From a virus (Duplodnaviria > Caudoviricetes): DNA of 26,729 bases. Positions within the stretch are counted from its first letter, which is position 1, and every line of letters begins with the position of its first letter. The position numbers were made by a program, and so were the translations under genes. The notes under the pieces are model-generated. The model did not search any database and was not told the DNA's origin. It was given only the letters and a program-made list of their open reading frames with translations. Location: positions 1 through 26,729 of the IMG/VR virus record IMGVR_UViG_3300029318_000083; one strand, given 5' to 3'. Of the stretch, positions 743 to 12,289 are shown piece by piece.

Positions 743-753
743 TGTGCTACACT
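743..753 (+). promoter_or_regulatory. Extended -10 promoter for the candidate sRNA
   Basis: TGTG-C-TACACT; G at 760, 7 nt after the -10 box, begins a hairpin, as at the other early promoters. Confidence 0.55.
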
Positions 754-759
754 CTGTAA

Positions 760-858
760 GTTGAGCTTGCATGAACGAGGCAACTCAACCCTGAGTGTGT
801 GACTCGGGTCTGTGGAGCTGATGGTCGTAGGGAGTCGGGACCTTACGGCCATTTTTTT
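760..858 (+). ncRNA. Candidate three-hairpin trans-acting small RNA
   Basis: P1 GTTGAG-c-TTGC/GCAA-CTCAAC (760-789); P2 CCTGAGT/ACTCGGG with GTGTG loop (790-808); P3 12-bp terminator stem with AGTCGGGA loop (821-852) then a T-run. Intergenic, with an upstream promoter; loops are complementary to early-gene leaders. Confidence 0.65.
821..858 (+). terminator. Rho-independent terminator
   Basis: ATGGTCGTAGGG/CCTTACGGCCAT stem (2 G-U pairs) followed by T7. Confidence 0.8.
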
Positions 859-2725: not shown

Positions 2726-3027
2726 TGGGCGACCACACCAAAATGGGCTATCACACCAAAATCAACACCGACAAACTCAAGAAACATCTTGAGTCAATCG
2801 AACATCAGCAAACAATTGAGGCTCCTTTCTGGACTCAACTTTGCTTCAATGACACGAGAAAAGAGTATGGCTTTTCTCAGGAATTATGGGCTACATCATT
2901 CGATGATGCCTGTAAGAAGGCCGCGGCCTATTGGAGGGTTGAGAGCAACGTACCCGACGGCATGAGCTACATGGTCTGGGGTGCAGGCGGCAGCATCAAA
3001 ATGGTCACACCTCTTCCGACAAAATGA
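2722..3027 (+). CDS. Hypothetical early protein
   Basis: Coupled to both neighbours (ATG 2725 likely); N-terminal 18-bp duplication MGDHTK/MGYHTK. Confidence 0.65.
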   Translation: MMGDHTKMGYHTKINTDKLKKHLESIEHQQTIEAPFWTQLCFNDTRKEYGFSQELWATSFDDACKKAAAYWRVESNVPDGMSYMVWGAGGSIKMVTPLPTK

Positions 3028-3254: not shown

Positions 3255-3277
3255 GCCCCTTGACAGGGGCTCTTTTT
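3255..3277 (+). terminator. Rho-independent terminator overlapping the -35 of P3
   Basis: GCCCCT-TGAC-AGGGGC followed by TCTTTTT. Confidence 0.7.
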
Positions 3278-3288: not shown

Positions 3289-3340
3289 TACATTGTCAGT
3301 TGATCACACCGACTGACTGTTCTACATTCCCCGACTAACT

Positions 3341-4327
3341 ATGTCACACGAGTTCACCGATGGAGTCATGATGCAAGGCGAGAAAGCCTGGCATGACCTC
3401 GGACAAGTTGTAGATGGCACACTCCCCGCCAGGGAGGCATTCACCCGAGCCAATGCACTCTTCACAGTCGAGAAAGCACCACTGATCTTCCGCAACCCTG
3501 TAACAGGTGTTGAGTCGGCCTCTGAGCACAGATGTGCGACATACAGAGCAGACACAGGCGATCAGCTAGGTACTGTCAGCCTCGGCTATGAGGTCATCCA
3601 GAACGAGGAACTTTGCAAATTTGCAGAGATGCTTCGAGATGACTGTGAGATGGAGACCGTTGTTGTTCTCAAAGGTGGAGCCAAGATCGCCTTCTCAGCA
3701 AAGATCCTGGGCACTGACGCCGAAGTTGTCAAAGGTGATGTCATCCACAGGCGGCTCAATGGCTACCTGTCACATGATGGCACGACCTCCTTTGGAGGTA
3801 TGTTCAGCAATGTTCGCATTGTCTGCAGCAACACCCTCGGCTGGGCCATGCAAGATGCCAACAAACACGGCAAACAGTTCAAGATCTCACACACCAAACT
3901 CGGTGTGTCACAGATTGACTCGACTCTCAGGTCCATTGACATTGCTCGACAGACCTTCAACCAAGAGGTCGAGGACTACAAACGTATGGCCGAGACTCAG
4001 ATGGACTTTGACTCTTACAGGACTTGGCTGACTGATCTTTACAACATGCCGAGTGTCAAGATGGATGATGGCACTCTGCGTCCAGGCCAGATTGAGGACT
4101 CCAAGGTCAAGTGGAACAAGCTCAGGAATGCCTGGGCCGGTGGCTATGGCACATCTATTGATGGTGTGTCCGACACTGTGTGGGGTGCATTCAATGCTGT
4201 CACCGAAGTGGAGACCAGCCTTAGAGACGCCCCAGAGAGCAGGAACATCGCCACTGTCAATGGTTACTATGTCCAACAAATTGTGAACAAGGCACGCCGC
4301 TCTGCTGCAGAGTTGTGTACTGTCTAA
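3341..4327 (+). CDS. DUF932 family phage/plasmid protein (TIGR03299-like)
   Basis: AWHDLG, R.DT...LG.V...YEVIQN, SHDGT, VRIVCSNT and TVWGAFNAVTE motifs. Confidence 0.9.
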   Translation: MSHEFTDGVMMQGEKAWHDLGQVVDGTLPAREAFTRANALFTVEKAPLIFRNPVTGVESASEHRCATYRADTGDQLGTVSLGYEVIQNEELCKFAEMLRDDCEMETVVVLKGGAKIAFSAKILGTDAEVVKGDVIHRRLNGYLSHDGTTSFGGMFSNVRIVCSNTLGWAMQDANKHGKQFKISHTKLGVSQIDSTLRSIDIARQTFNQEVEDYKRMAETQMDFDSYRTWLTDLYNMPSVKMDDGTLRPGQIEDSKVKWNKLRNAWAGGYGTSIDGVSDTVWGAFNAVTEVETSLRDAPESRNIATVNGYYVQQIVNKARRSAAELCTV

Positions 4328-4561: not shown

Positions 4562-4722
4562 CTTTTTCCATTTGTTTTGCAGCATGACCTAACCTACCTC
4601 CTGCACCTTTTATCAAAAAAAAATTGATTCGGTGCAGTGGTGGCCTGGGTTCCCAGGTGTCCATAGCGGACATCTGACCTACCAGGTGGGTGATTTCATC
4701 CACCCCAAGGTGGGTAAAAATT
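4562..4722. repeat. Modular element A (M1-M2-M3-M4-M5)
   Basis: M1 4584-4605, M2 4611-4632, M3 4635-4656, M4 4658-4671, M5 4677-4689; each has a counterpart in 5662-5785. Confidence 0.85.
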
Positions 4723-4771: not shown

Positions 4772-4799
4772 TATATTAAGAAAGTGATCAATAGATCAC
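4772..4799 (+). promoter_or_regulatory. Early promoter P4 (-10 only) with 5' hairpin
   Basis: TATATT; hairpin GTGATC-AATA-GATCAC begins 7 nt downstream (4784); no good -35. Confidence 0.5.
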
Positions 4800-4820
4800 A
4801 CAGCCCTTTTCCCGACCCAC

Positions 4821-5036
4821 ATGTCTATTCACACCACTGACATCCGAACTGCACTGACACTTTGTGCCAAGGCAGCCGTCCTCAAGCATGAAGTCAATGC
4901 CGAGGATCTGCCCTTTGATCTCAACTGCCCCGGTGATTCTGAAAAGTTCCATGACACTGTGGAACTTATTGAGCAAGCTCTCACCGAACAAATGATCACC
5001 ATGGTGGTCGATGCAATCCACAAGGGAGGTCTTTGA
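4821..5036 (+). CDS. Hypothetical small protein
   Basis: First gene of the cassette, preceded by the TCCCGAC motif. Confidence 0.7.
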   Translation: MSIHTTDIRTALTLCAKAAVLKHEVNAEDLPFDLNCPGDSEKFHDTVELIEQALTEQMITMVVDAIHKGGL

Positions 5037-5200
5037 TGCCGAAGTACACCACTCTTCGTCTCACTTATACCGAACTGCTTGGCTTGCTTGATTCCGTGGA
5101 AGGTGTCTTTCCAGAACTCCGCACTCAGGAGGAAAACCAGATTCTTGATCGGCTCAACAAGCGCATCAACAAAGCAATTTATCGACTGGAGTCCAACTGA
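5036..5200 (+). CDS. Hypothetical 54-aa protein (not in ORF track)
   Basis: TGATG coupling at both ends: MPKYTTLRLTYTELLGLLDSVEGVFPELRTQEENQILDRLNKRINKAIYRLESN. Confidence 0.7.
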   Translation: MPKYTTLRLTYTELLGLLDSVEGVFPELRTQEENQILDRLNKRINKAIYRLESN

Positions 5201-5421
5201 TGCCGTACTTACCTGATCTCAACCCCCCGAAGCCCAAGTCACCTGGCAACCGACTTCTGTATGCCACCAGGCTCCGAAAAGCACTAGAGGAGCTTATGAC
5301 GGACACAGAGCGTGACCATTACTCGGGTCTATTTGAACACTTCTCCGACTTTCAAAATGACATCCTTGCCGACCTTCAAGACTCAGTCCCAGCAATTGAT
5401 CCCTCCAAGCTTCATGACTAA
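5200..5421 (+). CDS. Hypothetical small protein
   Basis: TGATG coupling to upstream gene. Confidence 0.65.
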   Translation: MPYLPDLNPPKPKSPGNRLLYATRLRKALEELMTDTERDHYSGLFEHFSDFQNDILADLQDSVPAIDPSKLHD

Positions 5422-5614
5422 ACTCGACCCTCAGGCATCTGCTGATGAACTAATCGGCAAACTCCATGAGCTTAGAGTCGAGCGTGACTGCCTCAGAGAC
5501 GATTATGAGGTGTTATGTCACAGCATACGCCGAAAGTTTGACACTGAGCATGACGATCTAACCAAGAAAATTGAACAAGTTCAAGCCGCACTAGACAAGT
5601 TCACAAACAACTGA
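5414..5614 (+). CDS. Hypothetical coiled-coil protein
   Basis: In-frame ATG 5414 of ORF 5312..5614 overlaps the upstream stop; heptad-like sequence; followed by a terminator. Confidence 0.65.
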   Translation: MTKLDPQASADELIGKLHELRVERDCLRDDYEVLCHSIRRKFDTEHDDLTKKIEQVQAALDKFTNN

Positions 5615-5653: not shown

Positions 5654-5803
5654 CTGTGGCAACCTACCAGGTGGATCAGGATGTCCACAGCGGACCTTTT
5701 TGCTCCAGTGGTGGCCTTGCATCCCAGCTTCCGAATCAATTTTTTTTTGATATAAGCTCTTGGATGACCTAACCTACCTGGTGCATTTGATGCAGAAAAA
5801 AGA
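5635..5803. repeat. Modular element B (M5-M4-M3-M2rc-M1)
   Basis: M5 5662-5674, M4 5682-5695, M3 5706-5727, reverse-complement M2 5731-5752, M1 5764-5785. Confidence 0.85.
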
Positions 5804-6435: not shown

Positions 6436-7578
6436 ATGCCGCATCTTAATTTTTCTAAGTCGTCTGAAATTAAAAGGACGGCTAGGGTCGCACAACTGGA
6501 GGGACTTTTTGACATTGTTCCATCCCCAAAGTCCACAGTTTCCTATGACATCGATGTACCTATCGAAACATTCGATTGGAACATTGGCGTTATTGTCGGC
6601 CCTAGTGGCTGTGGTAAGACGACTATTGCCAGGGAACTATTTGGCGACAAAATTGACCAAGACTTCAACTGGGCAGGCGATAAAAGTATCGTAGATTCTT
6701 TCCCAAAGTCGATGGCTATCAAAGACATCACGGCTTTGCTGTCATCTGTTGGCTTTAGCTCGCCTCCGAACTGGTTGAGACCGTATCATGTTTTGTCGAA
6801 TGGCGAACAATTTAGAGTCGGAATCGCTAGAGGTTTAGCCGAGTCGCCTGACCTGTTTGTCGTTGACGAGTTTACGTCAGTCGTGGACCGGACTGTTGCG
6901 CAGATCGGTAGTGCCGCTATCGCCAAAGCAGTTCGCAAACGCGGTCAAAAGTTTGTAGCAGTCGCCTGTCATTATGACATTCTCGACTGGTTGCAACCCG
7001 ACTGGGTGTTTGATCCTTCTACCTCCCGCTTTGCGCGGGACTGTCTTCAACGACCCCAAATCACTCTCACGGTTCAACCCGTATCAGGCAAGCAATACTG
7101 GCCGATCTTCAGTAAGTTTCACTATCTGAACCGAGGCATCCATAATGGCGCGAAATGTTTTTGCGCTTTCTATCAGGGCCGGCCTGTCGCATTTACCGCA
7201 GTTCTTACGATGCCATGCCCGCAAGGGACCCGCTGGAAAGAACACCGCACCGTTTGTCACCCTGATTTTCAAGGTGTAGGCATCGGCAATGCCATGTCCA
7301 ACTTCATCGCCTCTTGTTTCCATGGAACTCGTGGTCGATACTATTTGTCGGTCACGGCCAATCCGGCAATGGTTGCTTACCGTGCTAAGTCGCCACTTTG
7401 GAATATGACCCGAAAGCCGACAAACAATTGTGACCAACGCGCAAGACGGGCTACAAAAGCCAAGACGGCAGCAATGACTCAATGGCGACAAGCACTAGGC
7501 ACAGACCGAATTACGGCAAGTTTCCGCTATTGTGGACCTAGGAACCCTGCAGGAGCCGCAGCACTAGGGATTAAGTAA
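6436..7578 (+). CDS. ABC-type ATPase fused to a GNAT acetyltransferase (putative DNA-modification enzyme)
   Basis: Walker A GPSGCGKT, signature LSNGE, Walker B VVDEF, H-loop ACH; GNAT motif A RTVCHPDFQGVGIG; no transmembrane segment. Confidence 0.85.
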   Translation: MPHLNFSKSSEIKRTARVAQLEGLFDIVPSPKSTVSYDIDVPIETFDWNIGVIVGPSGCGKTTIARELFGDKIDQDFNWAGDKSIVDSFPKSMAIKDITALLSSVGFSSPPNWLRPYHVLSNGEQFRVGIARGLAESPDLFVVDEFTSVVDRTVAQIGSAAIAKAVRKRGQKFVAVACHYDILDWLQPDWVFDPSTSRFARDCLQRPQITLTVQPVSGKQYWPIFSKFHYLNRGIHNGAKCFCAFYQGRPVAFTAVLTMPCPQGTRWKEHRTVCHPDFQGVGIGNAMSNFIASCFHGTRGRYYLSVTANPAMVAYRAKSPLWNMTRKPTNNCDQRARRATKAKTAAMTQWRQALGTDRITASFRYCGPRNPAGAAALGIK

Positions 7579-11000: not shown

Positions 11001-12289
11001 CTGTCCCTGCCGAGCTTTACAGAAACGCGATCGATCTCAATCGGTTTAGTAATGGTGTTGCTCGGCGCATTATTAACGTTTACAACGATATTATCATTCG
11101 CGCTGTAAATGAGCTGAGGATCATTGATGACCTTGGGTTGGATGATGATGGTCAGCTCTTTCGCGCCGCAAGACTAAGAAGCATTCTCGCACAACTTAAG
11201 GTATCGCTTGATGGTTGGGCCGGTGACGCAACACAGTTCACAGTCTCACAACTGCAAGGTGTAGCCGAGCTTCAAAGTGAGTTTGTGACACAGCAACTGC
11301 GCAATGTCTTGCCAAGAGGCGAGCGGTCCCTTGTCAATACTGTTGAGGTGTCGGGTGACTTTGCTCAATCTGTTGTACTAACCGACCCTACAGACGTAAA
11401 TGTTGTCGCATTGAGCGATGACCTTTACAAGGCGGTTTATGGTGTGCCTGATCCTGGTGTTCAGGGCATTGTGGGTCGAGCAACATTCAACCTGACAGCG
11501 ACTCAAGGCACAACAATTACGCTGCCCAACGGCAAAACAGTCGCAAAAGCTTTTCGTGGCTTGGCAGAAAGTCAGGCTGCATTGTTCGGCCAGATTGTCA
11601 GGCAGGGTCTCTTGTCAGGCCAGACACTTCCACAGATCACACGCCGGCTCAAAGGGCGCTTGAAGTTTGGCGACTATGCGCCATTGTCAGTTGGTCAGGT
11701 CAGAGCGGCTGGCTTGTCAATGAAACAGTTACAGCAGGCCGGTGGTGAGTTGACGGCAGTGGCAAACCATCAAGTCATGACTCTTGTCCGAACAAGCGTA
11801 AATCAGGTGACTAACACGGCTGCCATGAATGTGTATGAGGCGAACAATGACATCACAAAGAAGTATGAATACATCGCCACGTTGGATGCAAGAACAACCG
11901 CTATTTGCATGGCGCTTGACGGCCAACAGTTTGAGTATGGGAAGGGACCTGAGCCACCACAGCACTTCAATTGCCGATCTACTATTGCCGCTGTAGTTGA
12001 CTATGACAATCTGCCATTCTCGGCTCCAGATGATGAGGGTGAGCGAGCTGCCATAGGCGGCATGGTGCCAGCTGACATGAAGTATGGTGATTGGATCGCA
12101 CAACCTGAGAATGTTTCCATCAGAGTCAAAGCTTTAGGCAAAGGCAGAGCCGATTATTTTGACAAGCTACGACGCCAACCAGGCATGAACCCGCAAAAAG
12201 CACTGCAAAAACTCGTGCGTGATGATGGAAGTGAAGTTACCCTCGAAGAGCTAAGAAACAGGTACGGCCCAATCAATGCAAACAACTAA
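10997..12289 (+). CDS. Minor head protein (Mu gpF / SPP1 gp7 family)
   Basis: ATLDARTTAIC..LDG...PPQHFNCRS motif. Confidence 0.9.
   Translation: MTVPAELYRNAIDLNRFSNGVARRIINVYNDIIIRAVNELRIIDDLGLDDDGQLFRAARLRSILAQLKVSLDGWAGDATQFTVSQLQGVAELQSEFVTQQLRNVLPRGERSLVNTVEVSGDFAQSVVLTDPTDVNVVALSDDLYKAVYGVPDPGVQGIVGRATFNLTATQGTTITLPNGKTVAKAFRGLAESQAALFGQIVRQGLLSGQTLPQITRRLKGRLKFGDYAPLSVGQVRAAGLSMKQLQQAGGELTAVANHQVMTLVRTSVNQVTNTAAMNVYEANNDITKKYEYIATLDARTTAICMALDGQQFEYGKGPEPPQHFNCRSTIAAVVDYDNLPFSAPDDEGERAAIGGMVPADMKYGDWIAQPENVSIRVKALGKGRADYFDKLRRQPGMNPQKALQKLVRDDGSEVTLEELRNRYGPINANN

Follow-up and report, generated by a model that had tools for sequence, protein, structure and literature searches.

A 99-nt segment (positions 760–858) of the window, by which the whole analysed virus record of 26,729 bases (69% complete) is meant, is predicted to form a small RNA whose two exposed loops pair with a two-part tag marking where several separate early units of this phage begin. 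That 760–858 pairs with these early leaders is highly probable on the comparative evidence, and that it is a self-standing, trans-acting small RNA repressing dispersed early units without a Shine-Dalgarno (SD) motif as a group is the likely, less firmly held reading. The observations are of sequence, fold prediction, motif placement, conservation and co-variation; from them, we infer a transcript, its pairing in cells, repression and its timing.

The window reads from the end of an AAA_25 replication gene through about 5 kb of small genes, including a DUF932 gene, into ParB-like, ABC-ATPase/GNAT, terminase and structural genes. The small-gene block would be early, to judge from its position, gene content and host-type promoter motifs. 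PF13481 is present in full-length relatives of the replication gene, and a 97%-identical relative adds genes for a sigma-70-type factor, SSB, a Rad52-like protein, DUF3799 and RusA. Because the replication gene matches only Synechococcus phages S-CBS1 and S-CBS3 among named phages, the host is presumed to be a marine or estuarine Synechococcus, and the phage itself, uncultured and of marine type, falls in a siphovirus group related to S-CBS1. No tyrosine or serine integrase was detected in two 97%-complete relatives (PF00589 in 0/5 records, PF07508 in 0/2), no antirepressor family among the 17 window proteins scanned, and no prophage relative in genome contigs, where matches reached only 20–23%. 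The parts of the RNA unit and the gene before it are as follows.

15–734, + strand: AAA_25 replication gene, 3′ part, cut by the window start; tblastn matches to S-CBS1 gp41 (50%) and S-CBS3 gp45 (36%); stop codon 26 nt before the RNA unit.
743–753, + strand: predicted extended −10 (TG-c-TACACT), 6 nt ahead of the start of hairpin 1, from sequence and hexamer conservation.
760–858, + strand: predicted small RNA, 99 nt, with three hairpins and a U tail; 99/99 identical to L255, with flanks at 78–94%.
760–789, + strand: hairpin 1 (fold), likely for 5′ protection; its sequence is not kept between lineages.
790–808, + strand: hairpin 2 with seed A; open loop GUGUG at 797–801, extendable over 793–803 and, on the 1504 leader, to 809.
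809–819, + strand: unpaired linker (fold) with GGAG at 814–817.
820–858, + strand: terminator-like hairpin (fold; terminator-like site at 820–853) whose 8-nt loop, 833–840, is seed B.

The sequence-only reading of this DNA had described three stems and a terminator here. Folding of 760–858 agrees, returning three hairpins at −39.9 kcal/mol with a z score of −3.63 (2 of 200 shuffles are equally stable) and the terminator-like site. Apart from the hairpin-1 loop, linker and tail, the fold leaves just GUGUG (797–801) and AGUCGGGA (833–840) unpaired, which complement CACAC and UCCCGACU, respectively. The loop region 793–803 is complementary to a second target element as had been claimed, but only five of its 11 bases (797–801) are unpaired. 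The extended −10 is likewise a partial success: its sequence is as described and its position is conserved, but there is no −35 and a consensus promoter scan did not list the site. Support for it comes from positional conservation among lineages, a TAnnnT hexamer lying 4–7 nt before hairpin 1 in six of six. A sigma-70-type factor encoded in a close relative (L176, 6574–7440) is a candidate reader of this −10 besides the host factor.

The targets predicted in the window, each with an upstream element a facing seed A and a start-proximal element b facing seed B, are listed below.

964–988, + strand: predicted target at the start of ORF 969–1418; weak ACACT at 964–968 and TCCCGAC at 982–988; −11.1 kcal/mol; promoter-like site at 916–943.
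1467–1506, + strand: predicted target leader of a 158-aa gene (1504–1980); 5′ hairpin, a at 1472–1486, b at 1489–1496; promoter-like site at 1433–1460.
3004–3026, + strand: predicted target preceding ATG 3024, within the last part of the upstream ORF; a at 3004–3010, b at 3014–3020 with one G-U; −7.5 kcal/mol.
3295–3343, + strand: predicted target leader of the DUF932/TIGR03299 gene (3341–4327); a at 3304–3309 in a hairpin loop, b at 3330–3336; −10.2 kcal/mol.
4785–4823, + strand: predicted target leader of a 71-aa gene (4821–5036); 5′ hairpin, a at 4796–4802, b at 4810–4816; −11.0 kcal/mol.

All 14 motif stretches quoted in the sequence-only reading are found in the DNA as it gave them, that at 3330–3336 being CCCGACT, a 7-nt complement of 833–839. 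TCCCGAC occurs three times on the plus strand (982, 1489, 4810) and once on the minus strand, in the loop itself, against 0.6 per strand expected from dinucleotide shuffles. The two-part pattern CACAC-N2-25-YCCGAC is found four times in 26.7 kb, always on the plus strand and directly before an early ATG; 0.165 ± 0.42 are expected, and the maximum in 200 shuffles was three. Within the window, YCCGAC lies at −20 to −1 of 4/11 early and 0/29 late starts (Fisher p 0.004). Across the five lineages with seed B, which are kin and not independent, YCCGA precedes 23/59 early and 0/56 late starts, and in L115, the lineage without seed B, 0/6 early starts. The counts across lineages, as well as the early/late energy comparisons, used gene calls made blind to the motif. 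Mock loops drawn from the late region match the 11 early leaders as well in 0/5000 (8-mer) and 4/5000 (11-mer) draws, and in the energy model, the six best-scoring of 37 called starts in the window are all early. The four tagged ATG leaders have no SD motif by pattern; many late genes also lack an SD, and they lack the tag.

The site at 982–988 departs from the earlier account, which had put it in the start region of an ASCH unit. TCCCGAC is present there, but it falls in codons 5–7 of ORF 969–1418 because no in-frame start other than TTG 969 precedes the homologous part; ATG 1000 lies in another frame. The ASCH label was not upheld, as Pfam gave no family and a PDB search gave only weak matches (E 0.004). 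These are to 5Y6C/5GUS/5GUQ, which we take to be an ASCH-domain ribonuclease; were the protein of this ORF, which adjoins the RNA, such an enzyme, it could act on RNA as a partner or be no more than a target. The structure prediction for this protein has a pLDDT of 35, and an Atlas search with the protein of the 1504 gene returned no match.

Pairing was modelled with accessibility-corrected Turner energies in our own implementation. Seed B is predicted to pair at −7.5 to −12.5 kcal/mol, with no cost of opening the RNA, and site b is unpaired in four of five leader folds. In four of the five start-region folds, an open C-rich tract comes after a 5′ hairpin, and element a sits in a hairpin loop at DUF932. 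The strongest b pairing, −12.5 kcal/mol, is that of the 1504 leader, whose structure is open and whose element a can pair over 793–809 (net −4.8). The weakest of the five targets, 3004–3026, is partly paired in its own fold. Predicted net energies for seed A in the window are weak (−2.8 to −4.8, none at ORF 969); two leaders permit longer pairing with hairpin 2, and the hybrid on the 1504 leader would reach −21.3 if hairpin 2 opens. A caveat of the earlier reading stands for the window phage: since the two elements lie in the same order in RNA and target, 2–20 nt apart in the latter, the pairing is expected to form two separate helices. Among 354 tiles scanned, the leader sites take ranks 3, 8, 10 and 15, the 3014 site falls outside the best 16, and matches of the linker within coding or antisense sequence are equally good; single-site energy is not unique, and specificity would come from position together with the second seed. 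Promoter-like sites precede 969 and 1504, in a scan whose total of six is no more than chance, and similar sites before 3295 and 4785 were read by eye, as was the TTGACA at 3260–3265 upstream of the DUF932 leader. Separately, the linker (809–820) has predicted pairings of 9–12 nt in early coding sequences at 1127, 1353 and 1902 and equally good ones at 11628 and 21626; these pairings in early coding sequences represent a third seed or chance.

Relatives were gathered with five marker proteins, which gave six lineages with the early block and its upstream DNA: the window with L169, L255 and L256; L172 with L173, L171 and L170; L106 with L013; L096 with L097 and L098; L100; and L115. In all six, a folded unit of 81–106 nt (z −2.05 to −4.4) occupies the same place, starting 19–35 nt after the stop of a same-strand gene, and this upstream gene differs. 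In four within-lineage pairs, the RNA is 99/99, 98/99, 101/106 and 85/87 identical, which exceeds the identity of the downstream spacers (86/110, 104/110, 83/94 and 91/98). No reading frame over the unit, antisense or other, is kept across lineages. The units could not be aligned by sequence between the six lineages (MAFFT), and a covariance model built from L096, L098, L100 and L106 and run on 100 of 402 loci, with the window, L172, L171 and L115 among the 100, gave no match except one at E 0.6 in S-CBS1; the lineages are therefore grouped by where the unit lies, how it is built and its cores GUGA and UCGGG. Stem co-variation is thin: 4/16 pairs change on both sides in the four sequences, a level reached by 6/500 shuffles and equalled by a slide −1 control, and in the L172 group the count is 0/38. 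The last hairpin of L106, L096 and L100 has no U tail, and its seed B is partly G-U paired. In L172 (9658–9668), seed B is located in the linker, with a weak predicted pairing to the U tail, and not in the terminator loop. A further observation concerns 831–842 of the window (terminator loop and closing pairs), which is 10/12 identical to the hairpin-2 loop of L106, L096 and L100 (L106 4350–4361), as if seed hairpins had been duplicated or swapped as modules.

A blastn search of 600–1100 against 50,697 phage records gave no match, and a pattern scan of viral contigs gave 33, comprising six from known members (5–6 tagged starts downstream), 27 others (0–2) and no new member. Among 403 sequences, no distant phage that shares only the replication, ABC or DUF932 gene has at least three tagged starts, all 18 entries that do being of this group. 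No regular tags were found in the replication module. One 200-aa gene of that module in the L100 lineage (L343 3114, minus strand) has a tagged leader of early type, so that the regulon there may reach beyond the early block.

In agreement with the proposal that loops and leaders co-vary among relatives, the comparison is mostly favourable. The window and L106 have GUCGGG as seed B and CCGAC in their leaders (4/4 each); L100 and L172 have AUCGGG as seed B, and their leaders carry CCGAT in 5/5 and 2/4 cases, respectively (in L172, one has C and one lacks the motif). For seed A, the pairs are GUGUG/CACAC, GUAGUGA/UCACUAC (7 nt in 2/4 L106 leaders) and GAGGAGAGG with CCUCU or CUCUC. The most distant lineage, L115, has neither UCGGG nor CCCGA and uses GUGGUGGGUG/CACCCACCAC; between its RNA and its two orthologous leaders, the matches span 10 and 8 nt, at −14.6 and −13.8 kcal/mol. 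Counted without a tree, this amounts to about four independent switches of seed and tag, and most leaders in the seed comparison, the 1504 and DUF932 orthologues excepted, were chosen with the motif in view. The own-lineage assignment of seed A is the best among the permutations of four seed types (1/24), and the window leaders match seed A over 8, 6, 6 and 7 nt, a length of 6 or more being seen in 2% of 1056 late windows.

For the 12 orthologous 1504 and DUF932 leaders, 2/720 permutations of the energy matrix are as good as the cognate assignment (2/24 without L115 and L096). When RNA accessibility is left out, the numbers are 25/720 for all lineages and 5/24 without L115 and L096; seed B alone gives 8/120. 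The energy test leans on the distant lineage L115, and the cognate RNA ranks first for only 6/12 orthologous leaders. In L096 and L098, a C stands opposite the U of CCCGAU leaders (4/4), and early and late energies are alike there (p 0.5). The L096 and L100 leaders match seed A of L115 as well as or better than their own (mean 6.5 and 5.2 vs 5.0 and 4.6). A swap of L096 and L100 at the homologue of ORF 969 discriminates on the L096 site (−17.7 vs −14.1) but not on the L100 site (−17.3 vs −17.0). Taken together, comparison supports well the earlier claim that the loops pair with the phage's own early leaders.

Four other explanations were weighed. The pairing could be real while the unit is only the 3′ end and terminator of the replication mRNA, the long mRNA or a cut piece of it silencing the leaders with no promoter of its own. 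The position 19–35 nt after a same-strand stop, the missing −35 and the failure of the consensus scan to list the −10 would all fit; the TAnnnT hexamer nevertheless keeps its distance to hairpin 1 in 6/6 lineages while the bases around it and the upstream gene differ, and this explanation is considered unlikely. More doubtful is an activating role, in which the RNA would serve as a ribosome-recruiting adaptor on the tagged SD-less leaders, supplying a GGAG-type SD in trans and switching the gene class on. GGAG-type motifs pair with the 16S rRNA tail; GGAG is present in a loop, loop edge or linker in 5/6 RNAs, with 814–817 of the window unpaired, and the four tagged ATG leaders lack an SD motif. 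This is countered by G-rich stretches that vary with the leaders while the 16S tail is invariant, by the lack of GGAG in L115 and by the many late genes that have neither SD nor tag. In addition, a bulky hairpin at −15 to −4 is expected to hinder 30S loading.

A chance resemblance, in which the tag of the leaders acts as a translation enhancer or as a protein- or DNA-binding site, its complement in the hairpins having arisen by accident or as a stray reverse copy, is judged very improbable. The seeds are short (5–9 nt), the cores CCCGA and UCAC hardly vary, the switches number only about four, and the L096 seed is mismatched, all of which it would accommodate. It is hard to reconcile with the rarity of equally good mock loops, with both complements falling in open loops and with the joint replacement of tag and seed in L115; the unit is also not a copy of the tag, because the two elements lie in reverse order on the minus strand, and no antisense reading frame is kept across lineages. 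The least probable of the four is that the RNA mainly sponges the host small RNA Yfr1 and its kin and that the leaders merely resemble the Yfr1 motif. Yfr1 is abundant and near-universal in cyanobacteria according to the available part of PMC2190773, and the hairpin-2 loop region of the window is complementary over 8 nt to the 13-nt Yfr1/Yfr10/Yfr18 consensus given in the portion of PMC2518516 consulted. An invariant target predicts an invariant seed, so the 4–6-nt matches of the other five lineages, to different parts of the consensus, count against a sponge, which also leaves seed B and the pattern of loss in L115 unexplained. Yfr1 sponging could be a side role in the window's lineage only.

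Under the preferred explanation, repression by a trans-acting RNA, seed B (core UCGGG) would cover about −15 to −4 before the AUG, a C-rich open tract with no SD, or codons 5–7 at ORF 969. Seed A (core GUGA, with variable flanks) would hold a CA- or CU-rich element 2–20 nt further upstream, sometimes in a hairpin loop. Masking of the open, SD-less start region would, most simply, block 30S loading. The early units, with host-type promoters, would be translated at once after DNA entry and then silenced as the RNA accumulates, whether transcribed from its −10 or made as the 3′ end of the replication operon; early proteins would appear in a burst before being shut off together. Terminator loops matter in some small RNAs, to go by a section title likely without base-pairing (bioRxiv 10.1101/2024.01.16.575843, seen as an excerpt).

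P1 C4 and P4 CI RNAs serve as the comparison systems. An Rfam search, which the sequence-only reading had suggested, gave no match at E ≤ 1 over 760–858, and C4 was not found at gathering score in L171, L106, L096 or L115. In the C4 antisense RNA of P1/P7, loop b′ lies at the ribosome-binding site and a′ upstream, according to the available passages of PMC5320573 and PMC12197685. As far as these excerpts describe C4, the present unit resembles it in its small size, its three stems and its two seed loops, of which one faces the ribosome-binding position and the more variable other a site upstream, and in lineage specificity through co-varying seeds; here, the complementarity of both loops to the two target elements was found by computation. 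By the same descriptions, C4 is closed by a stem cut by RNase P, whereas the fold predicted here is three hairpins in a row with a predicted −10 and terminator of their own, and C4 targets the ant mRNA that encodes it, whereas here the targets are four to five separate, downstream early units over 4 kb. Nor was an ant transcript of a temperate phage recognised in which to place it, with no antirepressor annotated among the scanned proteins and no integrase in 2/2 near-complete relatives. The RNA works like P1 C4 but is not a C4.

GcvB of enteric bacteria is about twice as long as this RNA and Hfq-dependent. Its G/U-rich seed masks ACA- or CA-rich translation-enhancing elements in many mRNAs, which are silenced at these enhancers (PMC3879156, in part). 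The conserved, exposed seed complementary to several initiation regions found here, with lineage exceptions, is of this multi-target kind; GcvB is host-encoded with targets that keep an SD, in contrast to a phage-encoded RNA with seeds in hairpin loops and its own SD-less targets. SviR of the Vibrio satellite PLE, in the accessible text of bioRxiv 10.1101/2022.04.08.487710, is likewise a trans-acting small RNA of a mobile element that addresses several of its own operons with distinct seeds, but it acts in satellite–phage conflict, reduces the translation of helper-phage genes and changes how its own mRNAs are processed, and no shared leader tag is described in that text. GibS, MasB and BatR of Bacteroides are set apart by description as host small RNAs with the protein partner RbpB (PMC11697453, in excerpt). 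The cyanobacterial Yfr1 and Yfr2–5 share a GUGUG-type stretch complementary to a CACAC-type motif (PMC2518516 and PMC2190773, each in part), but they are host RNAs, and the complementarity is not kept across lineages; RF01116 (Yfr1) has no match in the window (0/1) and matches the control genome, Synechococcus elongatus. The cyanophage RNAs described in the available part of PMC12197685 (CfrI, wcaG, manA, glnA, abiF) are not of this sort, and no description of the present RNA was found in the literature searched, coverage of which excludes most subscription journals and bioRxiv supplements. The feature is judged real, and what would be new is a two-seed phage antisense RNA that acts in trans on dispersed early units.

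To our knowledge, early-gene shut-off in phages without an evident repressor is poorly known. If the proposal is true, several dispersed operons would be switched as a class by RNA only, through a shared, co-evolving leader tag. The RNA might also let related phages exclude one another, as P1 and P7 do through C4, and the six natural pairs of RNA and leader are ready-made material for swaps.

Public expression data touch the region lightly. Five RNA runs hold 5–7% of its words, and four metatranscriptome contig sets give patchy, low cover in short scattered contigs at a depth of about 2, showing neither ends nor strand. One metatranscriptome contig crosses 695–898 at depth 2.4.

Finally, several features of the surrounding genome are recorded. 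A 380-aa ABC-ATPase/GNAT fusion (phrog_11143; 6436–7578), between the ParB-like gene and the small terminase, is 85–86% identical across lineages whose terminase large subunits differ widely (27–84% to that of the window). An inverted repeat of 26 nt (96%; 4607–4632 and 5731–5756) and a direct repeat of 29 nt (79%; 4628–4656 and 5699–5727) bracket the small genes at 4821–5614; they may serve in gene shuffling, packaging or replication, and L013 seems to have stretches like them. An 18-nt tandem duplication (2725–2760) lies at the start of ORF 2725 and varies among relatives.
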